Shown in pieces: positions 17,931 to 39,556 of a stretch of 64,000 bases of DNA; position 1 is the first letter of the stretch, and every line of letters begins with the position of its first letter. Under the pieces are notes generated by a model, which had not been told where the DNA came from, did not search any database, and saw only the letters and a program-made list of their open reading frames with translations. The position numbers and the translations under genes were made by a program. This DNA comes from Escherichia coli (GTDB lineage: Bacteria > Pseudomonadota > Gammaproteobacteria > Enterobacterales > Enterobacteriaceae): the NCBI RefSeq assembly GCF_051903065.1, contig NZ_CP178438.1, one strand, 5' to 3'.

Positions 17931-18371
17931 TCACTCATAATCAGAACAAGATGATGATGTGCCCTGAGATATAAGAAAATCATCAAGAGAACCTCCGGCT
18001 TTTATTGCTTCTGCAATAACAGAAGGCCGACGACCTTGTCCACTCCAGTACATTATTTGACCGTTATACTCATACCTGTACTTATTAGACTCTCCTGAAT
18101 CGTTTTTTCTGCCCGTCTGTAATTTTTTGCCAAATTCACGATACACATCTTCCGCCGTTACACCTGCGTCATCCATGTACTTTTTGATAATTGCCAAAGA
18201 ATCCTTCAACTCATTACGCTGCTCAATGGCCTTTTCAAGGTTATCCTTAACTTGATTGAAGTCTTCATCAGACATTTCCATGATCAACTTCCGGACAAGG
18301 TTGGAATTAAGAAGTGATGTACGAACAGTAGAGAGATCTTCATTCTCAACAGAAAACTTCTTCTTGCTCAT
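17931..18371 (-). CDS. H-NS-family nucleoid-associated protein (horizontally acquired paralog)
   Basis: 146 aa; C-terminal DNA-binding region …KYRYEYNGQIMYWSGQGRRPSVIAEAIKAGGSLDDFLISQ contains the H-NS TWTGQGR-type motif; N-terminal coiled-coil region. Confidence 0.8.
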   Translation of the reverse strand: MSKKKFSVENEDLSTVRTSLLNSNLVRKLIMEMSDEDFNQVKDNLEKAIEQRNELKDSLAIIKKYMDDAGVTAEDVYREFGKKLQTGRKNDSGESNKYRYEYNGQIMYWSGQGRRPSVIAEAIKAGGSLDDFLISQGTSSSCSDYE

Positions 18372-20127: not shown

Positions 20128-21006
20128 TTATTTCAGCGTGCCGAACTGTTTGTCTTTCAGTGCATATAGTCGGTCGAACTCAGCATAGGGCTCTCCCGTT
20201 TCAGCCGCGTGCCGGGTTTTAGCATCCAGAAGGTCGGGTAAAGGGATCCTATGATTCAGTGAGTGGTAAAGATCATAACCACTGACACAGATAACCCGCT
20301 TCCCTTTACCAAAAGCCGTCAGGCCTTCAGGCGTAAAGCCCATCCAACTGATAAAAACACCGCGTGTCCAGGTTGCCTTGGTACTGAGCTTTCCTTCAAA
20401 TACATGGAGGTCGGCAGCCGACGTTCTTTTCTGATGCCACTTTGCCTCCATCAGGTAAAATTCATCATTCAGTCGGAAACTTCCGTCAATCTGTTCGCCT
20501 GTATTTCGGAAAGACGAACGGGGAGCAAGCTTAAAGATACTGAACAGTTCAGCAAGCCAGGCTTCAAACCGAAAACCACGTGGATGTGGCGGCAGAGATT
20601 TCATCTCGTTCATTTCAGCGATAAGTGAATGCCAGTCAACACCATGCCATGCCTGGACAGGCTTAACGCCTTTGGCTTCATCGGTGTCAGCGTTTTCTAA
20701 GCGGGAAATCAGTGCAAGATAGTCATTACGGCTTTGTTCAGCCTGTTCAGGCATGGATTCCGTTTTATACTGCCAGAGCGCACCAAGAACCCGCAGAGCG
20801 GTCTCACGATCAACCTGTTTCAGCAAGCATCTAACTCGTTTGGCTTTTGACGTCCCCTCTTTCTGATAACGTTCATCATCAATATCAATGTTCAATTCTT
20901 CATCGAAAAAAGCAGACAAGGTGCGGTTAGAGAAATCCAGTATCCAGCCAGGATCGCTCTCGAACACAATATTAAACAGCCTCAAATCCTGCATTTTCAG
21001 TTTCAC
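20128..21006 (-). CDS. Mrr-like restriction endonuclease-fold protein with unknown N-terminal domain
   Basis: 292 aa; C-terminal …[25 protein letters not shown]… is a PD-(D/E)xK (D…E-A-K) core resembling the Mrr catalytic domain; N-terminal 130 aa unassigned. Confidence 0.55.
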
Positions 21007-21333: not shown

Positions 21334-22065
21334 TCACCTGCCATCCAGTAGACGCCCCAGCCCACGACTGCAACCATAATTACGTTGACCAGAACCGTCA
21401 TGCTGCTTCGTCTCATACTTCACGAGATAACGGGCTCTCTCCATGGCTTTCTGCATCGCTTCCACATCACCACGCTTGACCCAGAGAACAGCGGATCCAC
21501 CAGATTTTTTGTCAGAATCCTTCCGGGTATCAGAACATCCACCAGGCACAGGCGTATCATCGGAAGAAGGGCGAGCATCAGATGATGTCGGTTTACGGAA
21601 AGGCGTCCGCCTGGAAAAATGAACCAGTCCATTACCCTGCCAGGGCTCAAGATGCAGAGCACTGCACCATGCCAGCTTGATCAGTGTCGCCAGCGAAGAA
21701 GGAACGGTGAAATCCCCTGGCGAGCACCAGGTATCTTTGTTGAGCAGTAATATCACGTGATAATGTTTCCTGCCTTTTTCCTTGCCAAACTCCCGACACC
21801 AGAAATAACGCAGAGTGGTTGCACGCACACGCTTGTTGGCACGTCGTTTTTTCCGCTGGTAAGCCTGAATTTTTGCTTTCAGGGATGCAAAAAAACGAGA
21901 AATCACCGCTGAATCTAAATCGGTATCCATGATGGTGGCAGGCATATACTCAGGGAAACGTAAATCCACCCGGATTAACGAGACGGCACGGTGTTGCGCC
22001 AGGGCACCGTTGAGAATACTTTCAAAACGGGATAACCAGTAAGCATTGTGTATTGGTTGATTCAT
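21334..22065 (-). CDS. YagK/YfjJ-family (inovirus Gp2-like) protein, paralog 3
   Basis: 243 aa; …KHYHVILLLNKDTW… core; preceded by about 1.5 kb of AT-rich ORF-free DNA. Confidence 0.6.
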   Translation of the reverse strand: MNQPIHNAYWLSRFESILNGALAQHRAVSLIRVDLRFPEYMPATIMDTDLDSAVISRFFASLKAKIQAYQRKKRRANKRVRATTLRYFWCREFGKEKGRKHYHVILLLNKDTWCSPGDFTVPSSLATLIKLAWCSALHLEPWQGNGLVHFSRRTPFRKPTSSDARPSSDDTPVPGGCSDTRKDSDKKSGGSAVLWVKRGDVEAMQKAMERARYLVKYETKQHDGSGQRNYGCSRGLGRLLDGR

Positions 22066-23579
22066 GATGAGAGATCTCCGTTGATTTGGATTGACTTCAC
22101 ATCATTAATCACCGCGGTAAAACTTTACGGCATCCGGCATTGAGCAATGCTACAACTTTCGGATTAAGAGTGATTGAAACGGAACAAACCATCCCGGAAC
22201 AAAAAGATAATTCTACACGCAGGGTAAAAACACTCAAGAACAGCGAATGGATTTAAAAACGACATGGACAACGAGAAAAGTCAGAAGGGAAAAGGATCCA
22301 CAGAACATTCAAACAAAACACCAGAAACGCAACCAGAACGCTTCCTGGTAATGCAAATCAACAACAACCCCAAAACCTACAGCTTAATCACACAACTCAA
22401 TCACGGATGCGAATGACACGTTTAAAACCTGTTTACAGATAACGCCGTTACACGATCATCCCCATCAGAATCGATTTTCCCTTCCTGAAAGCGTTACGTT
22501 TCACTACGCACCATAAAAACGATTAACCATCGATAACGTAAACTTCATCTGAATCAAAACACCAAAACCGTTCATCACACTTTCGCAATGCAAGAAGAGT
22601 CACATCATGACGAAAACAATGACCTTACACGGAAAAGAAAACGTCAGGAATCGTTAATGCCTCAATCTGATTGTTATCAAAACATCCAGAAAGTCGTTTA
22701 ACAGAATCGTCGTAAGCACATCGAAAAGAACGTCAGATTACTTCAGGAAAGTTCGGGTTGATTTAGCGTAAAGATACTTTTCTCATGCTAACGTCGAAAC
22801 TCGAAATATCAGGAAAGGTTAAACGTAACATCAGTAAAATCGAATAGCAGATTGATTGCTGAAGCAGAAAGGTTTTACAGCAGCATTAAACTGATTTTAG
22901 CTAACGTAAAGATTTACTAAACTGGATGTATTTCAGACAAAGCAATGTGTACAGCAATGCTTAACGAAAACACTTGTAGAAGTGTTTATGAAAATACGTG
23001 TATAACACTTACTGAAATGCTTAGTAAAAATACGTGTATATAGTATCATACCGACATTCTCAACTCTTCCAAACATCCATGCAGACTGAATGTTGATTAC
23101 CCGTTTTCACATCAGGCATGGTTCTTTACTGACCAAAAAACAAACTGGTTTACTCTTGAATTATTTTCTCTACCTCAGAAAACATGGTCTCAGGAATCTG
23201 TTATGGCTTCGTAGTTTCTGTTGTTCTTTTCATAAAAGTTATAAGTTATTGTCATAATCATACGATAATCACTTTATGTTAGTTTTTACTGTTACACGCT
23301 ACTGACTTTTTCAGTCATTGCCAGAAAGGGGCTCTTTTTACTTCCATTTCACCACTCAACAAATGCAAAACTCGTCCAGTAAAGCGGACCACCACTTGCT
23401 CACAAGCAACGAATCGTCTCCAGGAACAGCCCTCAAACATTGCAGAAACAAAAACAACAAAACCCTCATTATCACTGATGTTCGGAAAATTTCCATGACC
23501 CAAAAAACGAAATTTAAATGAGACGCATTATCATGCGTGTGATCAAAAAGACGTTATGGTAGCTTTCAGTTAAATGGTG

Positions 23580-24710
23580 CTATTTCTCATAAATCCACTT
23601 AACTTTTTTTACTGATTCATCCCAGAGAACCACTTTATCAGTAAAAAATGAATTATATAGATTGACGAGTTTTTCTGTTTCAGTTATTCCCAATGCATTA
23701 TGTATCAGTTGTAGATATGCTTTTATCCAGATTTCTTTACCCTCCCTCCACTTATCTATAAAAATTTCCAACTTACTTAATCGTTGATTTATAAAAAATG
23801 AATCAATATCATGAAAAAACTCAACAAGAAAACAGCACGAGATAATCTCAACAAAAAACAAATTCTCCTTAAAAGCATTATAAAACTTTATCAACACATA
23901 ACGAAAAACACCTCCTGTTAACCTTTCCTGTTCATAAAACAACAAGCCAAAAATAGGCGGAAATCTTTTAACCACACCACTTTTAATCCAGTAAGGATGA
24001 TGATTAGTCTTTACTGGCAGTGAATAAAAGAACAATTCGGTTTCTCTTTTCCCACCACAAACAGACAAAACAGTCTTATAAAGACTTTTTGAATCACTAT
24101 ATCCTGACACTCCAGACGAATTAGCAGGGTATTTTCTTTTTACTTTTTGCCTTAATGGAGCTGGAAGAATAATAAAACGGGATGGTAGATAACAATCGCT
24201 TTCAGAAGACCTGCATTCGCACACATGAAGATTTATATTTACATCCGGACAATTCAAAAACCACACAGAATAATTATCGCTCCGTTTGCAATATGAAACC
24301 CATGAATAAATTGCATAAAGTTCAGAAAGTACATCTAACTCTGCTTTTGATTTAAATGTGATACCGTTTCTTCGAATTCTCGTTTCCAGCGTTCTCCATG
24401 CCGGAGTTTTCAGTATCTCACGAACTTTTTTATTAAGTTCAACCAGCGATGGTCCCTGCTCCTGTTTATGTTTCTTCCTGCTGTTAATGATTTCTCTTTC
24501 TTTTACTAATTTTTTCTTACTTTTGGGTCCTTTTATCTTTCTTGGCAATGCTTCATTTAATCTGTGAACAGGATTTTGCTCTCTTCTTTTTTTGAGCTCA
24601 CAAAACCTCTCATAATGTTTTCTGCACAGTCTTTTCTCCACTGCCATTTTTACTGAGAAAACCTGATTGTTACAATTTTTTCTGACGCATTTGTTTTTAC
24701 GTCCGGTCAT
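23580..24710 (-). CDS. Hypothetical low-GC protein with N-terminal Cys cluster
   Basis: 376 aa, Lys-rich; N-terminal CVRKNCNNQ…CRKHYERFC suggests a zinc ribbon; no homolog recognised. Confidence 0.5.
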   Translation of the reverse strand: MTGRKNKCVRKNCNNQVFSVKMAVEKRLCRKHYERFCELKKRREQNPVHRLNEALPRKIKGPKSKKKLVKEREIINSRKKHKQEQGPSLVELNKKVREILKTPAWRTLETRIRRNGITFKSKAELDVLSELYAIYSWVSYCKRSDNYSVWFLNCPDVNINLHVCECRSSESDCYLPSRFIILPAPLRQKVKRKYPANSSGVSGYSDSKSLYKTVLSVCGGKRETELFFYSLPVKTNHHPYWIKSGVVKRFPPIFGLLFYEQERLTGGVFRYVLIKFYNAFKENLFFVEIISCCFLVEFFHDIDSFFINQRLSKLEIFIDKWREGKEIWIKAYLQLIHNALGITETEKLVNLYNSFFTDKVVLWDESVKKVKWIYEK

Positions 24711-24894
24711 CCTCTCATCTCCTGAAACCGCAGTATGTCATTAGTTCCCGTTCTGAAAAACTCACTTCATACTCCATTACACTTTAACAATAATATCCGT
24801 AATTCAGACATTCCATCATTTTTCACGTCCATATTACCTGAATGATAAACCGGATTAGTGTGATCCGGTTCAGTGAAATCAACAGGATACCGGT

Positions 24895-25779
24895 ATGTCA
24901 TTCAGCCATTCTTCCCTCTCCGCACAAGTGAAATCATATCTGACGTTTCTTCCTGAAGAAATTCGTCAGAAAATTCTTGAACATCTCCACAGCGTTATTC
25001 ATTACGAACCCGTGATTGGCATTATGGGTAAATCCGGCACCGGCAAAAGTAGCCTGTGTAATGCTATTTTTCAGTCCCATATCTGTGCCACACATCCCCT
25101 GAACGGCTGCACCCGCCAGGCTCATCGTCTTACCCTGCAGATCGGTGAACGCAGAATGACGCTGGTCGATCTGCCCGGCATTGGAGAGACGCCGCAACAT
25201 GATCAGGAATACCGGGCGCTTTACCGTCAGTTACTGCCGGAAGTGGATTTGATTATCTGGATCCTGCGGGCAGATGAACGCGCGTATGCCGCCGACATTA
25301 CCATGCATCAGTTTTTACTGAATGAAGGCGCAGATCCCTCGCGTTTTCTGTTTGTTCTCAGCCATGCCGATCGCGTGTTTCCTGCTGAAGAATGGAATGC
25401 CACAGAAAAATGCCCGTCCCGTCAGCAGGCGCTCTCACTGGCGACGGTGACAGCCCGGGTGGCAACCCTGTTCCCTTCATCATTTCCGGTACTCTCCGTT
25501 GCTGCACCTGTCGGCTGGAACCTTCCGGCGTTTGTGTCGCTGATGATCCACGCACTGCCACCACAGGCAACCAGCGCGGTGTATTCACATATCCGGGGAG
25601 AAAACCGCTCTGAACAGGCCCAGAAACACGCACAACAGACTTTTGGTGAAACCATCGGGAAAAGTTTTGACGTCGCCGTTGCCCGTTTCAGTTTTCCGGC
25701 CTGGATGTTACAGCTTCTGCGTAAAGCCCGGGACCGCATTATCCACCTGCTGATCACACTGTGGGAGCGTCTGTTCTGA
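24895..25779 (+). CDS. YeeP/YkfA/YfjP-family GTPase (CP4-type prophage)
   Basis: P-loop GIMGKSGTGKSSLCNAIF and DLPG motif; N-terminus close to E. coli YeeP/YkfA. Confidence 0.8.
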   Translation: MSFSHSSLSAQVKSYLTFLPEEIRQKILEHLHSVIHYEPVIGIMGKSGTGKSSLCNAIFQSHICATHPLNGCTRQAHRLTLQIGERRMTLVDLPGIGETPQHDQEYRALYRQLLPEVDLIIWILRADERAYAADITMHQFLLNEGADPSRFLFVLSHADRVFPAEEWNATEKCPSRQQALSLATVTARVATLFPSSFPVLSVAAPVGWNLPAFVSLMIHALPPQATSAVYSHIRGENRSEQAQKHAQQTFGETIGKSFDVAVARFSFPAWMLQLLRKARDRIIHLLITLWERLF

Positions 25780-25981
25780 CACACTCACGCCGACAGGATG
25801 TGTCGCTGGATTAACGAGCATTCTTCTTTTTATGAAATCATGCTTAAAAATCAGATAATTAAAAGAATATTTTTTCTGCTGCATTTTATTCCTGATTATC
25901 CGGATGCGACACATCCTTTCAACATCATGATGCATAATAACATCATGAAATAAAAGATGTTTTCTTACGGAGTGCACATCT

Positions 25982-26662
25982 ATGTCTGATAATCGTTCCC
26001 GGCATGATCGCCTGGCGGTTCGCTTATCACTCATTATCAGCCGACTGATGGCCGGAGAATCTCTGTCACTAAAAACACTGTCAGATGAATTTGGCGTTAC
26101 AGAACGTACTTTACAGCGCGATTTTCATCAGCGTCTGGTTCACCTGGATTTAGAGTACAGAAATGGCAGGTACAGCCTCAGACGACAGAGCAGCCCGGGT
26201 GCGATCCCTGAAATGCTTTCTTTTATACAGAATACCGGGATCGCACGGATACTTCCGCTCCGGAACGGACGACTGATAACCTGTCTTACCGACAACCAGG
26301 AGCCCTCTCCCTGCCTTATCTGGCTACCGGCGCCGGATATCACTGCAACGTTCCCCGAGTGTTTCTCGCAACTCATCCTGGCAATAAGACAGTGTATCCA
26401 CATCTCTCTGATGACTGAGCGATGGTATCCGTCACTGGAGCCCTGCCGGCTCATTTATTACAGCGGTAGCTGGTATCTGATCGCGTTACAGAAGGGAAAA
26501 CTGCAGGTCTTTCCTCTGGCAGATATCAAATCAGTCAGCCTGACATCAGAACGGTTTGAACGGAGAGGCCACATCCACAGTCTGGTCGCTGAAGAGCGTT
26601 TTATCTCCGCCCTGCCACATTTCTCTTTCATCCATAAACTTATCAACACCTTTAACCTGTGA
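25982..26662 (+). CDS. Putative HTH/WYL-type transcriptional regulator (YfjR-like)
   Basis: N-terminal HTH-like region (RLSLIISRLMAGESLSLKTLSDEFGVTERTLQRDF); position after the GTPase matches CP4-type islands. Confidence 0.55.
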   Translation: MSDNRSRHDRLAVRLSLIISRLMAGESLSLKTLSDEFGVTERTLQRDFHQRLVHLDLEYRNGRYSLRRQSSPGAIPEMLSFIQNTGIARILPLRNGRLITCLTDNQEPSPCLIWLPAPDITATFPECFSQLILAIRQCIHISLMTERWYPSLEPCRLIYYSGSWYLIALQKGKLQVFPLADIKSVSLTSERFERRGHIHSLVAEERFISALPHFSFIHKLINTFNL

Positions 26663-26809
26663 TTGCCGGCCTGCCAAAGCCGTCCCGACAGGTATGGAGA
26701 CAATATGTTGAACAGAAAACTAAATATACGGCTACGTCATTCCCTGAACAGTCACTGCATACCTTCCATCATTATCAATAACACCGTACGTTCATTTCAG
26801 AGGTCAGTC

Positions 26810-27487
26810 ATGAATACCAGAGCTCTTTTTCCCCTGCTGTTCACTGTGGCATCATTCTCCGCCTCCGCCGGCAACTGGGCTGTCAAAAACGGCTGGTGTC
26901 AGACCATGACGGAAGATGGTCAGGCGCTGGTAATGCTGAAAAATGGCACGATTGGTATTACCGGCCTGATGCAGGGATGCCCGAATGGTGTACAGACGCT
27001 CCTGGGCAGCCGTATCAGTATTAACGGTAACCTGATCCCCACATCACAAATGTGTAATCAGCAGACGGGATTCAGGGCTGTTGAGGTGGAAATCGGACAG
27101 GCGCCGGAAATGGTCAAAAAAGCCGTTCACTCCATAGCAGAGCGTGATGTGTCCGTTTTACAGGCATTTGGTGTACGAATGGAATTCACCCGCGGTGATA
27201 TGCTGAAGGTCTGTCCGAAATTTGTCACATCACTTGCCGGTTTTTCCCCGAAACAGACGACCACTATTAATAAAGATTCCGTCCTGCAGGCTGCCCGGCA
27301 GGCATACGCCCGGGAATATGACGAGGAAACAACAGAAACCGCTGATTTTGGCTCTTACGAAGTAAAAGGCAATAAGGTTGAGTTTGAAGTATTCAATCCT
27401 GAAGACCGTGCGTACGACAAAGTGACCGTCACGGTTGGTGCTGACGGTAATGCCACCGGCGCCAGCGTTGAATTTATCGGAAAATAG
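26810..27487 (+). CDS. Secreted hypothetical protein
   Basis: GAGG RBS then ATG 26810; signal peptide MNTRALFPLLFTVASFSASA; track ORF from 26663 rejected as a 5' over-extension. Confidence 0.55.
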   Translation: MNTRALFPLLFTVASFSASAGNWAVKNGWCQTMTEDGQALVMLKNGTIGITGLMQGCPNGVQTLLGSRISINGNLIPTSQMCNQQTGFRAVEVEIGQAPEMVKKAVHSIAERDVSVLQAFGVRMEFTRGDMLKVCPKFVTSLAGFSPKQTTTINKDSVLQAARQAYAREYDEETTETADFGSYEVKGNKVEFEVFNPEDRAYDKVTVTVGADGNATGASVEFIGK

Positions 27488-27516
27488 CCGGTATGTAGGA
27501 CTGCCACCCTGTTTTA

Positions 27517-27726
27517 TTGCCCGAAGGCCCTTTCTCACGCGAACAGGCGGTTGCCGTCACAACAGCTTACCGCAATGTGCTTATTGAAGATGACCAGGGA
27601 ACGCATTTCCGGCTGGTTATCCGCAATGCCGAAGGGCAGCTACGCTGGCGGTGCTGGAATTTTGAACCTGATGCCGGAAAACAGCTAAATTCGTATCTCG
27701 CCAGTGAGGGAATTCTCAGGCAATAA
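27517..27726 (+). CDS. DUF905-family protein (YkfF-like)
   Basis: …[53 protein letters not shown]… closely matches YkfF; only a TTG start is available because ATG-TAG sits immediately upstream (27493-27498). Confidence 0.55.
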
Positions 27727-27815
27727 ACGTCTTCATTTCATCCATCAGGCCGCGTCTTCTCCGGGAGACGCGGCCTTTTCGTTTATACCGCTAATTCATT
27801 CATAAGGAGCAAAGT

Positions 27816-28634
27816 ATGCAATTAGCCAGTCGTTTTGGTTATGCGAATCAGATACGCCGTGACCGTCCGCTGACACACGAAGAACTGATGCACTATGTAC
27901 CCGGTATTTTTGGGGAAGACCGGCATACCTCCCGCAGTGAACGCTATACGTATATCCCCACCATCACCGTGCTGGAAAGTCTGCAGCGGGAAGGCTTTCA
28001 GCCGTTCTTCGCCTGCCAGACCCGTGTGCGCGACCCGGGCCGCCGGGGATACACCAAACATATGCTGCGTCTGCGGCGGGCCGGAGAGATAAACGGAGAA
28101 CATGTCCCTGAAATTATTCTGCTCAACTCTCATGACGGTACCTCCAGCTACCAGATGCTGCCGGGTTACTTCAGGTTCGTCTGCCAGAACGGATGCGTCT
28201 GTGGTCAGTCTCTGGGGGAAGTGCGTGTTCCGCACCGGGGAAATGTGGTGGAGAAAGTTATTGAAGGGGCTTACGAGGTGGTGGGGGTTTTTGACCGGAT
28301 AGAGGAGAAGCGTGATGCCATGCAGTCGCTGGTCCTGCCGCCACCGGCACGCCAGGCGCTGGCACAGGCGGCACTGACTTACCGTTATGGTGACAAACAT
28401 CAGCCAGTCACCACTGCCGACATTCTGACACCACGACGCCGGGAGGATTACGGTAAGGACCTGTGGAGTGCTTATCAGACCATCCAGGAGAATATGCTGA
28501 AAGGCGGAATTTCCGGTCGCAGTGCCAGAGGAAAACGTATCCACACCCGTGCCATTCACAGCATCGACACCGATATTAAGCTCAACCGCGCATTGTGGGT
28601 GATGGCAGAAACGCTGCTGGAGAGCATGCGCTGA
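27816..28634 (+). CDS. DUF932-family protein (YfjQ/YafZ-like)
   Basis: 272-aa ORF with the conserved CP4-island DUF932 pattern as recalled. Confidence 0.65.
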   Translation: MQLASRFGYANQIRRDRPLTHEELMHYVPGIFGEDRHTSRSERYTYIPTITVLESLQREGFQPFFACQTRVRDPGRRGYTKHMLRLRRAGEINGEHVPEIILLNSHDGTSSYQMLPGYFRFVCQNGCVCGQSLGEVRVPHRGNVVEKVIEGAYEVVGVFDRIEEKRDAMQSLVLPPPARQALAQAALTYRYGDKHQPVTTADILTPRRREDYGKDLWSAYQTIQENMLKGGISGRSARGKRIHTRAIHSIDTDIKLNRALWVMAETLLESMR

Positions 28635-28725
28635 TGCTGTTTCCCTGAAAGTGCAGCCCTGACTCACGTCTGTACCAGTCCCCAGGCATTCTTCCATTCA
28701 TTTGCTTTTTATAAGGAATAATCTC

Positions 28726-29211
28726 ATGACAACCTCTTCGCATAATTCCACCACACCTTCTGTTTCCGTAACTACTGCATCAGGGAATAACCAGTCTCAA
28801 CTGGTTGCCACTCCCGTCCCTGATGAACAGCGCATCAGCTTCTGGCCGCAGCACTTTGGCCTCATTCCACAGTGGGTGACCCTGGAGCCCCGTGTCTTCG
28901 GCTGGATGGACCGTCTGTGTGAAGACTACTGCGGTGGTATCTGGAATCTGTACACCCTGAATAACGGCGGCGCATTTATGGCGCCCGAACCGGATGAAGA
29001 TGATGGAGAAACCTGGGTACTGTTCAATGCCATGAACGGTAACCGCGCTGAAATGAGCCCGGAAGCCGCCGGCATTGCTGCCTGTCTGATGACGTACAGT
29101 CATCATGCCTGTCGTACGGAGTGTTATGCCATGACGGTCCATTATTATCGGTTGCGGGATTACGCCCTGCAACATCCGGAATGCAACGCCATTATGCGCA
29201 TCATTGACTGA
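28726..29211 (+). CDS. Antirestriction protein (KlcA/ArdB family, YfjX/YafX-like)
   Basis: AAGGA RBS then ATG 28726; …RISFWPQHFGLIPQWVTLEPRVFGWMDRLCEDYCGGIWNLY… is typical of the family. Confidence 0.7.
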   Translation: MTTSSHNSTTPSVSVTTASGNNQSQLVATPVPDEQRISFWPQHFGLIPQWVTLEPRVFGWMDRLCEDYCGGIWNLYTLNNGGAFMAPEPDEDDGETWVLFNAMNGNRAEMSPEAAGIAACLMTYSHHACRTECYAMTVHYYRLRDYALQHPECNAIMRIID

Positions 29212-29225
29212 AAGGGGCCGGAACA

Positions 29226-29702
29226 ATGCAACAGCTTTCCTTTCTGCCCGGAGAGATGACGCCCGGCGAGCGCAGCCTCATTCAGCGGGCCCTGAAAACC
29301 CTGGACCGCCATCTTCATGAACCCGGCGTGGCCTTCACCTCCACGCATGCGGCACGGGAATGGCTGATTCTGAACATGGCAGGACTGGAGCGGGAAGAGT
29401 TCCGGGTGCTGTATCTGAACAACCAGAATCAGCTGATTGCGGGTGAAACCCTCTTCACAGGCACCATCAACCGCACAGAAGTCCATCCCCGGGAGGTGAT
29501 TAAACGTGCCCTGTACCACAATGCCGCTGCCGTGGTGCTGGCGCACAATCACCCGTCCGGTGAAGTCACCCCCAGTAAGGCAGACCGGCTTATCACTGAA
29601 CGTCTGGTACAGGCGCTGGCCCTGGTGGATATCCGGGTGCCGGACCATCTGATAGTCGGTGGCAGCCAGGTATTCTCCTTTGCCGAACACGGTCTGCTTT
29701 AA
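29226..29702 (+). CDS. RadC-like JAB-domain protein (YeeS/YkfG family)
   Basis: JAMM-like HNHPSGEVTPSKAD motif. Confidence 0.8.
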   Translation: MQQLSFLPGEMTPGERSLIQRALKTLDRHLHEPGVAFTSTHAAREWLILNMAGLEREEFRVLYLNNQNQLIAGETLFTGTINRTEVHPREVIKRALYHNAAAVVLAHNHPSGEVTPSKADRLITERLVQALALVDIRVPDHLIVGGSQVFSFAEHGLL

Positions 29703-29788
29703 CCCGTCACCGTCACAATCACCTTCATATCACTTCAGTTTCTCTTTCTCAGCTGTTTCTTACTTTCACATTCAGGAGGACTATTCTC

Positions 29789-30010
29789 ATGAAAATCATC
29801 ACCCGTGGTGAAGCCATGCGTATTCACCGTCAGCATCCTGCATCCCGTCTTTTTCCGTTCTGTACCGGTAAATACCGCTGGCACGGTAGCACGGATACAT
29901 ATACCGGCCGTGAAGTACAGGATATTCCCGGTGTGCTGGCTGTGTTTGCAGAACGCCGTAAGGACAGTTTTGGTCCGTATGTCCGGCTGATGAGCGTCAC
30001 CCTGAACTGA
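29789..30010 (+). CDS. DUF987-family protein (YeeT-like)
   Basis: MKIITRGEAMRIHRQHPASRLFPFCTGKYRWHGS…, near-identical to YeeT as recalled. Confidence 0.7.
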   Translation: MKIITRGEAMRIHRQHPASRLFPFCTGKYRWHGSTDTYTGREVQDIPGVLAVFAERRKDSFGPYVRLMSVTLN

Positions 30011-30089
30011 GTCTGGAAGGGCATTCAGAAGAGCAGAATTATCGCCACCACCGGACCATTCTTAACCAATTTTCTGTGAGGATTTTATC

Positions 30090-30458
30090 GTGTCAGACAC
30101 ACTCCCCGGGACAACGCTTCCCGACGACAATAACGACCGCACCTGGTGGGGACTGCCCTGCACCGTGACGCCCTGTTTTGGGGCACGTCTGGTGCAGGAG
30201 GGTAACCGGTTGCATTACCTTGCAGACCGCGCCGGTATCAGAGGCCGGTTCAGCGACGCGGATGCGTACCATCTGGACCAGGCCTTTCCGCTGCTGATGA
30301 AACAACTGGAACTCATGCTCACCAGCGGTGAACTGAATCCCCGCCATCAGCATACCGTCACGCTGTATGCAAAAAGGCTGACCTGCGAAGCCGACACCCT
30401 CGGCAGTTGTGGCTACGTTTATATGGCTGTTTATCCGACGCCCGAAACGAAAAAGTAA
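30090..30458 (+). CDS. cbeA: CbeA/YeeU-family antitoxin (type IV TA)
   Basis: MSDTLPGTTLPDDNNDRTWWGLPCTVTPCFGARLVQEGNRLHYLADRAGI… matches YeeU. Confidence 0.8.
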   Translation: MSDTLPGTTLPDDNNDRTWWGLPCTVTPCFGARLVQEGNRLHYLADRAGIRGRFSDADAYHLDQAFPLLMKQLELMLTSGELNPRHQHTVTLYAKRLTCEADTLGSCGYVYMAVYPTPETKK

Positions 30459-30547
30459 CTCTCCAGAATAACCTTCTTCTCCGGCCTGGTGCTTTCACCA
30501 CGCCACTTTTCCATTTTTCATCTCTGCATATCAGGAAAATCTTCAGT

Positions 30548-30925
30548 ATGAACACATTACCCGATACACACGTACGGGAGGCATCGCATTGCCAGTCTCC
30601 CGTCACCATCTGGCAGACACTGCTCACCCGACTGCTGGACCAGCATTACGGCCTCACACTGAATGACACACCGTTCGCTGATGAACGTGTGATTGAGCAG
30701 CATATTGAGGCAGGCATTTCACTGTGTGATGCGGTGAACTTTCTCGTTGAAAAATACGCACTGGTGCGTACCGACCAGCCGGGATTCAGCGTCTGTACTC
30801 GTTCTCAGTTAATAAACAGTATTGATATCCTCCGGGCCCGCCGGGCAACCGGCCTGATGGCCCGCGACAATTACAGAACGGTAAATAACATTACCCTGGG
30901 TAAACATCCGGGGGCGAAACAATGA
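30548..30925 (+). CDS. cbtA: CbtA/YeeV-family toxin (cytoskeleton-binding)
   Basis: Internal ATG 30548 (MNTLPDTHVREASHCQSPVTIWQTLLTRLLDQHYGLTLNDTPF…); track ORF from 30407 is an over-extension. Confidence 0.8.
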   Translation: MNTLPDTHVREASHCQSPVTIWQTLLTRLLDQHYGLTLNDTPFADERVIEQHIEAGISLCDAVNFLVEKYALVRTDQPGFSVCTRSQLINSIDILRARRATGLMARDNYRTVNNITLGKHPGAKQ

Positions 30926-31410
30926 AACTGGCCCTGACGCTGGAAGCCGACAGCATTAACGTGCAGGCACTGAACATGGGGCGCATTGTCGTTGACGTCG
31001 ATGGTGTTACTCTCGCTGAACTGATTAACGTGGTCTGCGATAACGGTTACTCCCTTCGTGTTGTTGATGAATCTGACCGGACATCAGCAGAGCGCACGCC
31101 ACCATCTGCGGCCCTTACCGGCATACGCTGCAGTACCGCACATATCACGGAAACGGACAATGCCTGGTTGTACTCGCTGTCAAATCAGACGAATGACACC
31201 GGCGAATCAGAATGGATTCATTTCACAGGTAGCGGATATCTGTTACGTACCGATGCGTGGTCATACCCGGTTCTGCGGCTTAAACGCCTGGGGCTGTCCA
31301 GAACGTTCCGCCGTCTGGTTGTCACACTCATCCGGCGTTATGGCGTCAGTCTCATTCATCTGGATGCCGGTGCTGAATGTCTGCAGGATTTACCCACTTT
31401 CAACTGGTAA
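30922..31410 (+). CDS. YeeW-like protein
   Basis: ATG overlaps the cbtA stop (ATGA); 162 aa; position and sequence consistent with YeeW. Confidence 0.55.
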   Translation: MKLALTLEADSINVQALNMGRIVVDVDGVTLAELINVVCDNGYSLRVVDESDRTSAERTPPSAALTGIRCSTAHITETDNAWLYSLSNQTNDTGESEWIHFTGSGYLLRTDAWSYPVLRLKRLGLSRTFRRLVVTLIRRYGVSLIHLDAGAECLQDLPTFNW

Positions 31411-31429
31411 CCAGGACAAAAGACACAGG

Positions 31430-31627
31430 ATGAAATCATTAACCACAGAAACGGCGCTGGATATTCTGATTGTGTGGCTGCAGGACAATATCGACTGCGA
31501 ATCGGGAATTATCTTTGACAACGATGAGGATAAAACGGATTCGGCAGCACTGTTGCCCTGTATCGAACAGGCCAGGGAGGGTATCCGTACCCTGCGCCAA
31601 CTGCAGCTTCTGCACCAGAACCGATAA
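31430..31627 (+). CDS. Small hypothetical protein (65 aa)
   Basis: ATG 31430 (MKSLTTETALDILIVWLQDNIDCESGIIFDNDEDK…); the longer track ORF 31058-31627 overlapping yeeW is rejected. Confidence 0.4.
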   Translation: MKSLTTETALDILIVWLQDNIDCESGIIFDNDEDKTDSAALLPCIEQAREGIRTLRQLQLLHQNR

Positions 31628-32098
31628 ATATTACTCACCATACTTCATTCCACTGACGCCAGCCTGAACAGGGCTGGCGTTTTCATTTATCTGCAAAAAG
31701 GAATATCAATTATGTCTGAAATCACAGCCTCCCGTCCGGAAGTGGTCAACGGGGACATTATCTGCTCCACCTCAGTCAGCCACATTCTGGCTGTACAAAA
31801 GAGTACACAGCTGCAAATCGACACACTTATCCGGCATCAAGTGAGCGATATCAGTTAACAGATATAGATGGAGAAGATGCTTTTATCCGGATTGGTTCTA
31901 TCGCGATGGTGCGAGTACTACTTGATGCAATGAAGCCTGTCGAGGAAGATGACGAGTAACAGAGCTCGGTATCTCAATCAGGAGCTGATTGTCCTGGTTC
32001 GATGCCGAAAACCAGTGATTTTTCGTGTTGGTATCTGTGTTGGTATAAGATGATATTGTTTATTATTAACAATTTTAAATCATGAGGTTAAGTCACAT

Positions 32099-32122
32099 GT
32101 TCGAGTCCGGCCTTCGGCACCA
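32099..32122 (+). repeat. 24-bp copy of the tRNA-Leu (leuX) 3' end: island boundary direct repeat
   Basis: GTTCGAGTCCGGCCTTCGGCACCA equals the leuX T-arm/acceptor 3' end (from memory); no D-arm or anticodon arm upstream, so it is an att fragment, not a tRNA gene. Confidence 0.65.
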
Positions 32123-32346
32123 CATCGTATGCAAATCGAGTCGCTCAAGGGCGGCTTTTTTTGTGTCTGGAATCCGTTAGTTACCTATCTTTCTCGCTAT
32201 TTTAACTCTCTCAGAGCCAGCCAATTTCAACCCATCGCAAACGAAAAATGTTGGTACAGGCGTTGGTATTTTCGGTTCGACATTAATTTGTATTAGCTCA
32301 GTCCTGATCTGACAGCTATCTGCCAGATCAGGTTCGGATTAATACA

Positions 32347-35300
32347 TTATATCTGCCCGCCTACACCTTTAAACTTCTCAATAAACGCGACGATCTTCTG
32401 GAAAACCGTCTGTTTTTTCGTCTTATATTGCGGATTTAACGGACTGAGTTTTGGCAATGTCTCGTTTAATTCCGTGCCATTTTCGGTTGCGTATTCGCGT
32501 TTTAAAGACGTGCGAATATAGCGTTTCGCCGCCTCTTCATTGAGATTTTCTTCTTTGATCAATGCTGCTGCTTCACGTTGCTGTTCGCGTTGAGCAAAGG
32601 TAAAAAACGCGTCAATGATGCTGGCTTTATCCGGCAAATCATCCAGGTTCGTTTGCTGAATAAAATCGACCACCAATCCTTCTTTGGCACGGTTCCCAAG
32701 GCTTGAACGAATTAAGCGTTTGACCTCTTCGGTCATTTCGCCCTTACCTTTGTTTTGTCTGTTGTGTTCGAAAATCAGTCCAAGGATATAATCCAGGTTT
32801 ATTTCCTGAGACTTCAGCAAATCGACCTCAAAAACCACGTCATCCCAGTCGGTGGTTGATTTTTCTTTTTTGTCAGCTTCTTTCTCACGGCGCTGCCAGT
32901 CACGAATATCGTTATAGGCTGAACGGTAATCCTGAATCTTGCGATCAGCAGGGAGACGAATCGTTTGTAATTCAGCGAACTTTTCATCATCCACATAATG
33001 TTCTGCTTTGAATTTTTCTACCGCAACAGGATCGCTAAGATCGATTTGTTGCAGGGCTTTCAGCATGGCAAATTCATCATAGTTTTGCAGGATGTTCTCG
33101 GCACGCAGGTATTCACCAAACAGTTTTACGAAGTCTTTCTTCTCTTTTTCACTTTCAATATTGGCAGGGTCAGGGAACCGTTGTTCCAGTTCTGAAACTA
33201 CTGCCATAAAGCCGCGTTTAGCTTCACCAGTGGCAGCATCAGTAAAGCCTTCCATATACTCTGCATAACTCTTTTCTAACACCACATTTTTGGTATTTTT
33301 ATCACCAAACAGCGTTATGGCATCAATGGTTGAGCGTTCCAGATCCCGGAAAGTGACGATGTTACCGAAGGTTTTAGTGGCGTTATAAATGCGGTTGGTG
33401 CGGGAAAATGCCTGCATCAGGCCGTGAAAACGCAAGTTTTTATCGACGAATAGCGTGTTCAATGTTGGAGCATCGAAGCCGGTTAAAAACATCCCCACGA
33501 CAATTAACAGATCGATATCTTGATTTTTAACCCGTTGGGCTAAATCACGATAGTAGTTCTGAAAACCGTTACTGTCGGTGCTGAAGTTAGTTTTAAAATA
33601 GCTGTTATACTCACGAATTGCAGCGTCAAGAAACTCTTTAGCACTGCTGTCCATTGCGCTGGTATCAAAAGTTTCATCGGAAATTTCACCAATGGCATTT
33701 TGCTCTTCATTGGCGGCAAAGGAGAAGATTGTCGCAACACGCAGCGGTTTATAAGTAGCCGATTTATTAGCTGCTTCCTCTTGTAACCGTTTAAACGTAG
33801 CGTAATAGGCTTTCGCGGCATCCACGCTACTCACTGCCAGCATGGCATTAAAGCCTTTGGAACTTGGGAAAGTACGGTGGGTCTTCTGGCGGAAGTTATT
33901 CAGAATATATTGCGTAATTTCCTGTATACGCATGGGATGAAGAAACGCCTGCTGATTTTCAGCCGCACTCAGTTTTTTCTCGTCGGTTTCTGTCTCTAAA
34001 GACTTAAACTGTGGCCGCACATCGTTGTAGTCCACCTTGAATTTGAGCACTTTTTCATCACGAATCGCATCGGTAATCACATATGAATGCAATTCACGAC
34101 CAAATACGCTGGCGGTCGTTTCTGAGCCTAAAGCGTTTTCCGGGAAAATAGGGGTACCGGTAAAACCAAACTGATAATAGCGTTTGAATTTCTTCTTCAG
34201 ATTTTTCTGCGCTTCTCCAAACTGGCTGCGGTGACATTCATCAAATATAAACACCACTTGCTGATTGTATACAGGCAGGTCGCTTTCTGCTTTCATCAGG
34301 TTATTAAGTTTCTGAATAGTGGTGACGATAATTTTGTTATCGTCCTTATCCAGATTTCGTTTAAGACCTGCTGTATTTTCCGAGCCGTTAACACTATCTG
34401 GCGAAAAACGCTGATATTCCTTCATGGTCTGGTAATCGAGGTCTTTCCTGTCGACCACAAAGAAGACTTTATCAATAAAGTCCAGTTCTGTTGCCAGACG
34501 TGCGGCTTTAAAGCTGGTCAGGGTTTTACCAGAACCGGTTGTGTGCCAGATAAAGCCACCGCTTTCGGGGGTAGACCAGTTTTTCGCTTTATAGGAGCTG
34601 TTGATTTTCCATAAGATACGCTCAGTGGCGGCAATCTGGTACGGTCGCATCACTAGTAGCGTTTGGCTAATATCGAACACGCTGTAGTTCACTAAGACAT
34701 TAAGCAGAGTATGTTTCTGGAAAAAGGTAGCGGTAAAGTCTTTGAGGTCTTTAATCAGCGTGTTGTCTGATTTCGCCCAATTCATGGTGAAATCAAAACT
34801 GTTTTTATCGCGCTTTGTGGTGTTGGCAAAATAACGGGTATCGGTGCCGTTAGAAATGACAAACAGTTGCAGATACTTAAACAGGGAATTTTCGCTGTTA
34901 AAACTCTCTTTACTGTAACGATGTATTTGGTTGAAAGCCTCACGAATCGCCACGCCGCGCTTTTTCAGTTCGATTTGTACCAGTGGTAAGCCATTAACCA
35001 GGATCGTGACGTCATAACGGTTAGCATGAGAACCCGCCTGTTCAAACTGCTGGATAATCTGCACCTTATTGCGCATGAGATTCTTTTTATCTATCAGATA
35101 GATATTTTCAAGACGCCCGTCATCAAAAATAAAGTCGCAGATATAGTCGATATGAATTTTACGGGTTTTATCCAGGATGCCATCGCTGGGGTTGTCCAGA
35201 TACTGCTCCGTGAAACGCCGCCACTCGCTGTCATTAAACACCACACCATTGAGGTTCTGAAGCTGTTCCCGAACATTGGACAGCATCGCCGACTGTGATT

Positions 35301-35463
35301 TTACCGAAATAAATTCATAGCCCTGATTCCGCAGGTCCTGAATCAGTTCCCGTTCCAGGTCCGATTCGCTCTGGTAGCTGTCGCCTGTTTGCTCAGCTTT
35401 GATGTACTTATCAAGGACGATAAAGTTATTGGATTCAGCAATGGTGTGTGTTTGATGAGTCAT
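32347..35463 (-). CDS. hsdR: Type I restriction enzyme R subunit (Type IC, EcoR124-like HsdR)
   Basis: 1038 aa (same length as EcoR124I HsdR as recalled); helicase motifs TGSGKT and DECHRSQ. Confidence 0.95.
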
Positions 35464-35584: not shown

Positions 35585-36865
35585 TTAGTTACTGATAGTT
35601 TCAGGTTTGGGAAAACTGAACAGTAAATCACGATAGTACTCGTATTGTTTCTGGCGCAACTCGATTTCACGCGGGAGGCCTTCGGTGATGGAGTTTGTCA
35701 GAGTGTCGAATTTATCGAGTATTGCGACGATACGAGCTTGTTCCTTAAGTGATTTTTCGTGATCTTTAGGATATGGAACCGGAATCATAATTTTTGAAAA
35801 ACCATTAATGAGTAGTGTATTAACTTTTGTTCTGGCTACATACTTTGCTTTTTCAGAAATAAACGAATCGGTTTGCATGTAATAGGAAATAAATTTTGGA
35901 TTCAAAGAATGTCGAAAAGCATAACAGTGATCATGAATAGCGATATCGTCATCCCCAAGCCATGCCACTGCTTTACCAACGTCTTCTACAGTCTCCCCCA
36001 CGTCAGTTATCACGACATCTCCATGTTTGGCATAGCGTAATGACGCTGCCATATCAGCTCTAACCTGTGATAACGAATGAGTTGTGTAAACACCATATCG
36101 TGTATATATCTCACCATAATGGATTACACTGATACCACCATCTTCTACATAATCTGCTTTAGTAAAACGTTTTCCACGAATAAACTCACCAATTTCCCCC
36201 AAAGTCTTCCACTCAACCTCACCCTCTTTAAAACTCAACAACTGGTCGCGATAGTAGTTGTACTGTTTTTTACGCATGGTAAGCTCTGCTGTAAGCTCTG
36301 CTGTAAGCTCAGTAAATTTATCCAGAATCCGAACGATTTCAGACTGGATGGCAAGGGATTTTTCCGGATTGCCCGGGCAGGGGATGGGGATGAGTAGTTT
36401 TGACATCAATGCATTTGAGCTTAGATTCGGCTGTGCTCCGCCCCCTGCAAGGATATAAATAGTCTCTGTATTTAACAATAAAAAATGGTATAAATAATTA
36501 TTGTTTAGAATATTTTCTTTGGGTATAAATTTCCCAACACGTTGGTTAAGATAACATTTTATTCCTTTTTTATAAATTCCCACTTTTCCTGTAGTGGCAC
36601 CTGACATTGCAATCAATATATTTCCCATAGATACCTCAAAGGAGGATAAATCTTCCTTGTAATCATTTAGTGAAAAGTATTTCACCTCATCTAAGTCAAC
36701 ATTAAACCCATCTATATTTGTGATTCTAACTATCGGTAACCCAGTTTCTTTAAATAAGCTGCTTTTAAATGCAAATCCATTTTTAAAATCACAAACATCC
36801 TTCAGGGTTTTCCACTCAACCTCAACCCCATCCAGCAATTTTTCCAGATAACTCAACTCGCTCAT
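35585..36865 (-). CDS. hsdS: Type I specificity subunit HsdS (Type IC)
   Basis: Two target-recognition domains separated by the conserved …[23 protein letters not shown]… region with the TAEL repeat; ATG overlaps the hsdM stop. Confidence 0.9.
36279..36310. repeat. 12-bp tandem repeat in hsdS (TAEL repeat, 2 copies plus a partial)
   Basis: GTAAGCTCTGCT x2 then GTAAGCTC on the plus strand, encoding TAEL-TAEL in the HsdS central region. Confidence 0.7.
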
Positions 36866-38416
36866 TTCTGCACCCCGCAGCCTTCAATTTCAGCCACAAT
36901 CGCATCAATATCTTTGCGCAACTGGTCGATTTTGCTGACCGTGGTTTTCAGCTCAGCATTCAGCTCACCGATATCGATAATTTCGCGAGTATCTTTCGCT
37001 TCAACATAGCTGCTCACCGACAGGTTATAGTCATTCGCTACAACGGCTTCAAACGCGACAGATTTCGCCAGATGAGCAACATCTTCCTTGCTGGCAAATA
37101 CCTGCATAATCTGTTCGATATGGGCATCGGTCAGGATATTGTTGTTGGTCTCTTTTTTGAACAGTTCGCTGGCGTCAATAAACTGAACTTTGGTATCGGT
37201 TTTATGTTTAGACAGCACCAGAATATTGACGGCAATAGTGGTGCCAAAGAACAGGTTCGGTGCCAGTGAAATCACGGTTTCGACATAGTTATTATCGACC
37301 AGATACTGACGGATTTTCTGCTCCGCGCCGCCACGGTAAAAAATACCCGGGAAGCAAACAATCGCAGCGCGACCTTTGGCCGAAAGATAGTTCAGCGCAT
37401 GTAGTACAAAGGCGAAGTCAGCTTTGGATTTGGGGGCCAGGACGCCAGCCGGGGCAAAACGTTCATCGTTAATCAGCGTCGGGTCATCGCTGCCAATCCA
37501 TTTCACCGAATACGGCGGGTTAGAAACGATGGCATCAAACGGTTTTTCATCTCTGAAGTGCGGCTCAGTCAGTGTATTGCCCAACTTGATATCAAACTTG
37601 TCGTAGTTGATGTTGTGCAAAAACATGTTCATACGCGCCAGGTTATAGGTCGTATGGTTGATCTCCTGACCAAAAAAGCCTTCTTCGATGATATGGTCAT
37701 CAAACTGCTTTTTCGCCTGCAACAACAGCGAACCGGAACCTGCGGCCGGGTCGTAGATTTTGTTAACGTGGGTCTGCCCGTGCATAGCCAGTTGTGCAAT
37801 CAGCTTAGAGACGTGCTGCGGTGTAAAGAACTCGCCGCCTGACTTACCAGCATTCGCGGCATAGTTAGAAATCAGGAACTCATAGGCATCGCCGAACAGG
37901 TCAATCTGATGTTCGTTAAAGTCGCCAAGCTTTAACCCTTCAACCCCTTTCAGAACCGCAGCCAGGCGGGCATTTTTATCCTTAACGGTGTTACCCAGGC
38001 GGTTACTGGTGGTATCGAAATCAGCAAACAAACCTTTGATGTCAGCTTCTGAAGGGTAACCGTAAGCAGAACTTTCGATAGCAACGAAGATGCTGTTTAA
38101 ATCTGCATTCAGTCTGTCATTGGTATTTGCTTTCGCAGCTACGTTGCAGAAAAGCTGACTTGGGTAGATGAAGTAGCCTTTGGTTTTGATGGCATCGTCT
38201 TTAATGTCATCAGTTATTACGCTGTCATCCAGTTTCGCATAACAGATACTGTCATCACCGGCTTCAATATAGCTGGAAAAATTTTCGCTGATAAAACGGT
38301 AGAAAAGCGCGCCCAGAACGTATTGCTTAAAGTCCCATCCATCGACCGAACCTCTGACATCGTTAGCAATTTGCCAGATCTGGCGATGAAGCTCCGCGCT
38401 GCTGAAGACTGGTCAT
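36862..38416 (-). CDS. hsdM: Type I methyltransferase HsdM (Type IC), apparent frameshift near codon 8
   Basis: C-terminal 389 aa intact (NPPY motif, …[11 protein letters not shown]…). ATG 38416-38414 with AAGGA RBS reads MTSLQQR, but the conserved …[23 protein letters not shown]… continues in another frame. Confidence 0.8.
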
Positions 38417-38722: not shown

Positions 38723-39556
38723 ATGCAAACAGAAGCTGAAGTCTTAACCGATCATAACGAACTAATTTGCTCGACCAGTATTGAGCGTATCGTCACAGGA
38801 CGTGATAGTGCACTGAACCAGATAGCGGCGTTAATCCAAAAGCTTGATGATATCTCCAGCCTGACATCCAGTATTGGCGGTGATGTGGCTGGAACCTGGG
38901 CAATGCGTAATGGATATGCCTTTGATTGCTGGCTGATGCAGCCAACCGACAAAGCGATGCCGGTGATCACCCGAAATATCGATCGCAGTATCTGGCGCGA
39001 TCTCATGCTGAAGTCCGGTATGTTGACTCTGATGGATGCCGAAGCTCGCAGTCAGTGGGCAAAGAATCTGGAGGAGGGCGATCTCCCGGCGATTAGCGAA
39101 GCCAACATCCTGAGTACCTTTGAACAACTTCACCACAATAAGCAGGATGTTTTCGAACGTGGGATTATCAATGTATTTAAGGGATTGAGCTGGGATTACA
39201 AAACCAATAATCCCTGTTATTTCGGTAAGAAGATTATCGTTAACAATCTGGTGAAGCATGACCGATGGGGCTACAGCCTGCACTGGGGCTGGCGGCGAGA
39301 TCAGCTTGCCGATCTGGAACGGATGTTCTATCTGCTGGATGGGAAGGTCATTCCCGATAACCGGCATGATGTTGCGATTCGGTTTATGGACTTCGTTAGT
39401 GCTCACCCGCATGAGCAGGTATTTAATGACGATTTATTTGTCATCCGCTATTACCAGAAAGGCAGTGGGCATATCACATTCAAGCGACTGGATCTGGTGG
39501 ATAAGATGAATGACATTGTGGCGAAGCACTATCCGTCAGCGTTATCAGCAAAATGA
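38723..39556 (+). CDS. Hypothetical protein (277 aa) upstream of the McrBC-like pair
   Basis: ORF with ATG start, same strand as the McrBC-like genes, separated from them by about 360 bp; no catalytic motif recognised. Confidence 0.5.
   Translation: MQTEAEVLTDHNELICSTSIERIVTGRDSALNQIAALIQKLDDISSLTSSIGGDVAGTWAMRNGYAFDCWLMQPTDKAMPVITRNIDRSIWRDLMLKSGMLTLMDAEARSQWAKNLEEGDLPAISEANILSTFEQLHHNKQDVFERGIINVFKGLSWDYKTNNPCYFGKKIIVNNLVKHDRWGYSLHWGWRRDQLADLERMFYLLDGKVIPDNRHDVAIRFMDFVSAHPHEQVFNDDLFVIRYYQKGSGHITFKRLDLVDKMNDIVAKHYPSALSAK

Follow-up and report, generated by a model that had tools for sequence, protein, structure and literature searches.

A recurrent block of accessory genes lies at the distal ends of several pathogenicity islands (PAIs) and is visible in published island maps (SRL PAI orf46-55; islands at selC, pheU, and pheV). 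The distal ends of the Shigella resistance locus (SRL) PAI of Shigella, the selC, pheU, and pheV islands of Shiga toxin-producing strains of Escherichia coli (STEC), the locus of enterocyte effacement (LEE) PAI (L0007-L0010), and PAI II-536 encode, in this order, a YeeP-type GTPase, YfjQ, YfjX/KlcA, YeeS, YeeT, YeeU, YeeV, YeeW/L0008, and DUF957/L0009. Many of these islands also carry Ag43 after the GTPase gene and DUF4942 (L0010) after DUF957. Related genes occur in the CP4-44, CP4-57, and CP4-6 elements of E. coli K-12. We analyzed a block of this kind in 64,000 nucleotides of E. coli DNA (NCBI RefSeq assembly GCF_051903065.1, contig NZ_CP178438.1), and this whole stretch is called the window below. 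The block occupies positions 24895 to 31627 and follows the gene order of the published islands. It is likely to represent the conserved accessory module from the distal end of a P4-integrase-type island at the tRNA gene leuX, combining establishment (anti-restriction) functions with an addiction function.

Gene content, intactness, and order

The module contains 12 co-directional open reading frames (ORFs) on the plus strand, none with an internal stop codon, and two terminator-like hairpins:

24895-25779, plus strand: GTPase of the YeeP/YfjP family, 294 amino acids (aa) (Pfam MMR_HSR1, E = 2.6e-15; identical to WP_000010408.1, "GTPase")
25982-26662, plus strand: helix-turn-helix (HTH)-WYL regulator, YfjR-like, 226 aa (Pfam HTH_11 and WYL; PADLOC WYL, E = 2.6e-18)
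26810-27487, plus strand: secreted protein with a Sec signal peptide, 225 aa, without a family match
27517-27726, plus strand: DUF905 protein (YkfF/YubL family), 69 aa from a TTG start (Pfam, E = 5.7e-31; PDB 2HJJ [YkfF], E = 6e-27; WP_032150870.1)
27747-27776, plus strand: strong terminator-like hairpin between DUF905 and DUF932, 13-bp stem with 9 GC pairs
27816-28634, plus strand: DUF932 protein (YfjQ/YafZ/YubP family), 272 aa (Pfam, E = 1e-52)
28726-29211, plus strand: ArdB/KlcA-type antirestriction protein, 161 aa (Pfam Antirestrict [PF03230], E = 6.9e-37)
29226-29702, plus strand: RadC-like protein of the JAB/JAMM metalloprotease family, 158 aa (Pfam RadC, E = 5.1e-45)
29789-30010, plus strand: DUF987 protein (YeeT family), 73 aa (Pfam, E = 3e-39, full profile)
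30090-30458, plus strand: CbeA (YeeU) type IV antitoxin, 122 aa, GTG start (Pfam CbeA_antitoxin [PF06154], E = 1.1e-54)
30548-30925, plus strand: CbtA (YeeV) toxin, 125 aa (Pfam CbtA_toxin [PF06755], E = 3.1e-63, profile positions 1-112 of 112)
30922-31410, plus strand: DUF5983 protein, full-length and two-domain, 162 aa (Pfam DUF5983_N, E = 2e-31, and DUF5983, E = 6e-21)
31430-31627, plus strand: DUF957 protein, 65 aa, encoded by the final gene of the module (identical to WP_001327226.1, "DUF957 domain-containing protein")
31655-31681, plus strand: terminator-like hairpin after DUF957, closing the module

Domains were called by a Pfam profile search, and further scans were made with PADLOC, NCBIfam, Rfam, and PDB sequence comparison. 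Pfam families were assigned to 10 of the 12 ORFs, with E values ranging from 5e-05 (WYL) to 3e-63 (CbtA). Eight of these 10 had a domain-specific match at 6e-31 or better, mostly over the whole profile. Judged by these scores, the family matches lie far beyond chance. The secreted protein and the DUF957 protein had no match in the Pfam copy used. The GTPase translation shows the P-loop GKSGTGKS and the motif DLPG. For the uncharacterized members, PADLOC and NCBIfam returned only WYL, a generic GTPase, and RadC, with no assignment to a known defense system.

All 12 products are identical to RefSeq WP_ proteins that the NCBI Prokaryotic Genome Annotation Pipeline (PGAP) annotates as intact in strain GDSC2BY4G and/or strain TCM3e1. 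At the nucleotide level, 24500-32122 differs from GDSC2BY4G at 1 base and from TCM3e1 at 7 bases. The ORF lengths fit the K-12 homologues and complete Pfam profiles, and no frameshift or truncation was found across the 12 ORFs, in comparison with K-12 and RefSeq proteins, beyond a nonsense codon in DUF905. A preliminary description of this region, made from the sequence alone, had listed the same families and judged that every gene but the YkfF-like one (DUF905) looked full length, while naming frameshifts or truncations missed by eye as what would overturn it. Both the gene list and the intactness of the genes are borne out by these comparisons. That description named 11 genes and did not list DUF957 separately, though its end point, 31627, is the DUF957 stop codon.

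The hairpins after DUF905 and DUF957 suggest at least two transcription units, and the GTPase, the WYL regulator, and the secreted protein would form a separate upstream unit. The hairpin at 27747-27776 has a perfect, GC-rich stem and a T-rich tail and ends ~40 nt 5' of the DUF932 start codon. Since this leaves nearly no space for a separate promoter before DUF932, the hairpin may act as an attenuator or an mRNA-end structure instead of a full stop. A promoter scan gave 11 matches, compared to 8.2 ± 3.3 in shuffled sequence, which is not above expectation, and we claim no promoter. An Rfam scan of 22000-33000 at permissive thresholds gave a single subthreshold match (c4-a1b1, 18.5 bits versus a gathering score of 46.7 bits) and no IsrC-like or other RNA.

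The K-12 homologues differ widely in their similarity to the window proteins. The GTPase is a distant paralogue of YfjP (36% identity), YkfA (35%), and the YeeP remnant (32%). The regulator shares 43% identity with YfjR, and no counterpart of the secreted 225-aa protein was found in K-12. YfjQ and YafZ show 74% identity to DUF932, and YafX and YfjX show 65% identity to ArdB. Identities of the RadC-like protein are 98% to YeeS, 83% to YkfG, and 78% to YfjY/LfgB; DUF987 is 93% identical to YeeT. CbeA and CbtA are 92% and 86% identical to their K-12 namesakes, respectively, and DUF5983 is 63% identical to YeeW over residues 5 to 64 only.

The distal part of the module is closest to CP4-44, where RadC, DUF987, CbeA, and CbtA are colinear with the window genes (yeeS-yeeT-cbeA-cbtA-yeeW) at the 98%, 93%, 92%, and 86% identities given above. 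CP4-44 differs in that flu and yeeR separate the yeeP remnant from yeeS, and it lacks the WYL regulator, DUF905, DUF932, and ArdB, all four of which are present in the window. In addition, yeeP is a pseudogene and yeeW a 64-aa stump in CP4-44, whereas the window genes are full length. CP4-57 (yfjP...ypjF) and CP4-6 (ykfA...ykfI) resemble the window in a larger set of families: GTPase, DUF932, regulator, DUF905, ArdB (YfjX/YafX), RadC (YfjY/YkfG), DUF987, antitoxin, and toxin. However, their DUF932 gene directly follows the GTPase gene, whereas that of the window comes after DUF905, and their identities to the window are lower (GTPase, 35 to 36%; regulator, 43%; ArdB, 65%; toxin, 58 to 65%). 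They carry the lipoproteins YfjS/T or YafY/YkfB where the window has the 225-aa secreted protein, and they stop at the toxin, without DUF5983 or DUF957 (ypjI and ykfK/L are pseudogenes). The earlier statement that the region reproduces the order of CP4-44, CP4-57, and CP4-6 thus holds for the shared families and for the distal RadC-DUF987-CbeA-CbtA segment, which is close to CP4-44. It does not hold for the placement of DUF932 or for CP4-44 as a whole, which is without four of the families. The gene order of the window is not identical to that of any of the K-12 CP4 modules but is a variant built from common families.

Plasmid relatives and predicted functions

Three of the module's families are also found in the leading region of the F plasmid, where the DUF905, DUF932, and antirestriction proteins are 54%, 62%, and 27% identical to the window proteins, respectively. 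We take these F genes to encode YubL (DUF905), YubP (DUF932), and YubI (antirestriction). The F-plasmid DUF932 gene is the last before the SLT transglycosylase gene and traM. Unlike in the window, ssb, psiB, a parB-like gene, and hok are scattered among the leading-region genes, and the region is without RadC, DUF987, and CbtA/CbeA. Leading regions of this kind have been described as anti-defense islands, with klcA and toxin-antitoxin genes among their contents (PMC11541004).

Matches to parts of the block were found in at least 5000 plasmid records, of which 4256 are conjugative. On the Klebsiella IncFIB/IncHI1B conjugative plasmid NZ_CP021699.1, a WYL regulator gene precedes DUF905-DUF932-ArdB-RadC-DUF987-YeeU-CbtA-DUF5983-DUF957, in the same order as in the window and at ~70% nucleotide identity. 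The plasmid differs from the window in having five small ORFs (four hypothetical and one DUF4234) between the WYL regulator and DUF905 and in having no YeeP-type GTPase within 6 kb upstream of the block. The window order is the conserved form across genera, and the K-12 CP4 copies are rearranged or truncated versions of it.

To determine the distribution of the module in the species, we compared 24500-32300 (7.8 kb) with 5426 complete E. coli genomes. In 1610 of them (~30%), a single place held at least 80% of the query. Some part of it matched in 5163 genomes (95%), and the median number of matching places per genome was three. The module is very common and multicopy; it is ordinary and already described.

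Because paralogues of DUF905, DUF932, and ArdB sit in the leading regions of conjugative plasmids, we propose that DUF905, DUF932, ArdB, and the RadC-like JAB protein form an establishment (anti-defense) set that would be expressed and act on entry into a new cell. From residue 24 to the C terminus, the window ArdB is nearly identical to PDB 2WJ9 (E = 3e-96), presumably ArdB of the CFT073 pathogenicity island, and it also matches KlcA (2KMG; E = 5.6e-20). The CFT073 and window proteins differ in their N-terminal ~20 residues and in length (157 aa versus 161 aa), and their island contexts are alike. In an earlier study, ArdB of the CFT073 island, YafX, and YfjX inhibited all four families of type I restriction-modification (RM) systems in vivo but did not inhibit EcoKI in vitro (Serfiotis-Mitsa et al. 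2010, PMC2836571). Inhibition in vivo without inhibition of EcoKI in vitro implies that ArdB acts indirectly and not by DNA mimicry (PMC2836571). The window protein would block type I restriction in the same indirect manner as its near-identical relative.

The addiction function is attributed to the toxin-antitoxin pair. CbeA matches the YeeU structures 2H28 and 2INW in PDB at E values of about 3e-77 (4e-77 for 2H28), and its gene lies directly upstream of the toxin gene on the same strand (30090-30458 before 30548-30925). In an alignment of the window toxin with CbtA, YkfI, and YpjF, residue F65, through which CbtA contacts FtsZ (PMC5624674), is invariant. Residue 15 is a cysteine, as in YkfI and YpjF, and the MreB-contacting R15 of K-12 CbtA is not present. 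The R15C substitution in K-12 CbtA abolishes MreB binding, but R15 is not conserved and the Cys15-bearing YpjF still binds MreB (PMC5624674). Judging from these residues, inhibition of FtsZ by the window CbtA is expected, and inhibition of MreB is plausible but uncertain. The window toxin is most diverged in its N-terminal 24 residues. In the proposed mechanism, CbtA would inhibit the polymerization of FtsZ (and probably MreB), CbeA would counteract it by bundling the filaments, and the pair would stabilize the island by penalizing its loss.

The RadC-like protein opens the way to a different explanation. In K-12, YfjY/LfgB is reported to act as a protease on MqsA during oxidative stress, and the yfjXY-ypjJ-yfjZF operon is induced by MqsR (PMC10846083). 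The ArdB-RadC-DUF987-antitoxin-toxin segment might likewise be a domesticated operon that serves the host in stress, as has been proposed for CP4-57. Consistent with this, the window RadC-like protein has, by its translation, an intact JAMM motif (HxHx7Sx2D; H107, H109, S117, and D120), and a strain without all three toxins is more sensitive to oxidative stress (cited in PMC5624674). On the other hand, although the protein is 78% identical to LfgB, the region upstream differs (DUF932 is directly upstream), and the MqsA-bound lfgA promoter may not be conserved. That the block also occurs on plasmids, and more than once in a genome, favors a function at the level of the element over one at the level of the host. 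We therefore regard a host stress operon as unlikely to be the principal explanation, although it is compatible with the establishment and addiction reading and does not exclude it. The idea of looking for MqsA sites in the window was set aside, as the footprinted ACAT-N2-ACAT motif is too degenerate to inform.

Several further points weigh against a role in establishment and addiction. The analogy to leading regions consists of three homologous families plus colinearity on one plasmid class, as judged by the comparisons above. The 12 window ORFs include no ssb, psiB, or relaxase gene, and no Rfam family was detected; oriT itself was not searched for. Likewise, the block on NZ_CP021699.1 has no visible transfer genes within 9 kb. 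The K-12 work on cleavage of MqsA by LfgB/YfjY points to host-level roles (PMC10846083), and targeting of both FtsZ and MreB by the window CbtA is uncertain. The literature since 2019 on the functions of DUF932, DUF905, YfjQ, YafZ, and YubL yielded nothing mechanistic. By analogy with the plasmids, it is nonetheless plausible that the genes counter restriction as the element enters a new cell.

The island boundary and the neighboring type I RM cluster

The right end of the island was located by searching the window for the 3' end of leuX, with the leuX sequence of strain GDSC2BY4G as the reference. The features around the boundary are:

32099-32122, plus strand: attR, a 24-nt direct repeat of the 3' end of the tRNA-Leu gene leuX (exact single match in the window; 0 expected by chance)
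32138-32157, plus strand: terminator-like hairpin after attR, in a position that matches the hairpin 3' of leuX itself
32347-35463: hsdR, downstream of attR

The DUF957 stop codon lies 471 bases before attR. Strain GDSC2BY4G matches positions 1 to 24900 of the window at 99.9%, and ~12 kb further upstream it carries a tyrosine integrase gene adjoining leuX and ahr; the integrase is outside the 64-kb window. The hsdR-hsdS-hsdM-DUF4942-McrBC cluster that follows the module in the window is also present in strain 23CRST027, directly beside a leuX that is unoccupied, and the homology to the window starts exactly at 32099. Because attR lies between the module and this cluster, and because the cluster abuts an empty leuX in 23CRST027, the type I RM genes are outside the island, which was inserted beside them.

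This arrangement bears on the suggestion, made in the preliminary description, that an antirestriction gene next to a type I RM system is functionally notable. The two are close (ardB at 28726-29211 and hsdR at 32347-35463), and type I systems are targets of ArdB-family proteins (PMC2836571), so ardB could be coupled to the neighboring cluster and modulate or disarm it. However, attR separates the gene from the cluster, and the cluster is identical where leuX is unoccupied. The RM system itself also appears defective. Over its 1555 nt, the hsdM gene (36862-38416, minus strand) shows no difference from the copy in 23CRST027 that PGAP calls frameshifted. By translation, its frame breaks within the first dozen or so codons, and the longest in-frame ORF, which begins at an internal TTG, has 389 aa. 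Type I systems depend on HsdM to restrict as well as to modify DNA, and this one is therefore probably inactive. In the genome collection, the junction of module, attR, and hsdR occurs in 46 genomes versus 1610 with the module, and close relatives of the module have other neighbors (an HNH endonuclease gene or AbiJ with an insertion sequence [IS] element). Functional coupling thus seems extremely improbable, and the suggested notability is not supported: the adjacency of antirestriction and RM genes is incidental, an accident of the integration site.

Further observations concern the surroundings of the boundary. Between DUF957 and attR, 31712-31959 holds two overlapping gene fragments, one of a hypothetical protein without its C terminus and one of an HTH regulator without its N terminus; in related strains, both carry a pseudogene annotation from PGAP. 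A DUF4942 gene (38723-39556, plus strand; E = 1e-68) lies beyond hsdM and outside attR, whereas it directly follows DUF957 in the SRL and LEE islands. The RM/McrBC cluster beside leuX may therefore occupy what is left of an older island end. The whole combination seen in the window was present in none of the complete genomes of the collection. The left 32 kb is 99.9% identical to GDSC2BY4G, the RM/McrBC side is 99.9% identical to 23CRST027, and the junction is 99.3% identical to EM03-18-08 and SEV1. From these matches, the locus looks mosaic.

Upstream of the module, the island carries genes for an H-NS paralogue (17931-18371, minus strand) and a Mrr-type restriction endonuclease (20128-21006, minus strand), surrounded by numerous IS fragments and a group II intron. 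The nearest upstream neighbor is an orphan ORF of 376 aa (23580-24710, minus strand) in a low-GC stretch (34 to 37%), with a Cys/His-rich N terminus. This ORF had no Pfam, NCBIfam, or PADLOC match and few homologues, found in Enterobacteriaceae only, and its AlphaFold2 model was unusable (predicted local distance difference test score, 44).

The DUF905 start lesion and what the module means

The one defect in the module affects the start of DUF905, as the preliminary description had correctly noticed. The ancestral start codon, ATG at 27493-27495, runs straight into a TAG (27496-27498) that shares the reading frame of the DUF905 ORF. Alignment with alleles annotated at 77 aa traced this to a single C-to-A change at 27497 that turns codon 2 from TCG into TAG. 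The related 77-aa alleles begin ATG TCG GAC TGY CAC CCT GTT TTA TTG CCC, and over 81 bases, the sole difference between strain Ecol_AZ159 and the window is at 27497 (C versus A). Among the 1839 genomes with a match to this stretch, 85 (~5%) had the exact TAG-bearing 81-mer. The TAG form is therefore a minority, derived allele, and the nonsense mutation is recent.

PGAP calls an intact 69-aa coding sequence from the in-frame TTG at 27517, with the loss of 8 N-terminal codons, and the product still spans positions 3 to 68 of the 70 in the Pfam profile. On reading the sequence, we found no motif resembling a Shine-Dalgarno sequence at a suitable spacing from this TTG; a lone AGGA lies 16 nt upstream. 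Expression of DUF905 is therefore doubtful and probably poor or none. Two other genomes carry lesions in the same gene. STK39-3-E has an independent TTA-to-TAA change at codon 8, and ECO_2_R has, downstream of Ag43, a copy with a frameshift. DUF905 has thus been hit repeatedly in its short 5' end.

These lesions could be taken as the first visible step toward pseudogenes in a silent, decaying remnant. The truncated K-12 genes (yeeP, ypjI, ykfK/L, and yeeW) and the island-encoded H-NS paralogue nearby would fit such a scenario. In contrast, 11 of the 12 ORFs are intact and identical to alleles in many genomes. Both the gene order and the reading frames have also been kept at ~70% nucleotide identity in the Klebsiella plasmids, indicating purifying selection. 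We find decay of the whole module very unlikely.

A more speculative explanation, which we hold to be possible but rather doubtful, treats DUF905-DUF932-ArdB-RadC-DUF987 as a portable anti-defense cassette common to islands and conjugative plasmids. DUF932, DUF905, and DUF987 would then be inhibitors of host defense, and the nonsense mutations at codons 2 and 8 of DUF905, which are independent of each other, would reflect selection for silencing or shortening of the gene once the island is resident. Translation might perhaps reinitiate at the TTG after the ATG-TAG start-stop.

The reading that we prefer is that of an island module for establishment and addiction. The block is common and includes several uncharacterized members (DUF932, DUF905, DUF987, DUF5983, DUF957, the GTPase, and the secreted protein). 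In this copy, the defect in DUF905 is traced to one base. The right boundary of the island is placed at attR (32099-32122), and the pairing of antirestriction and RM genes across it is a by-product of integration beside a variable defense locus.

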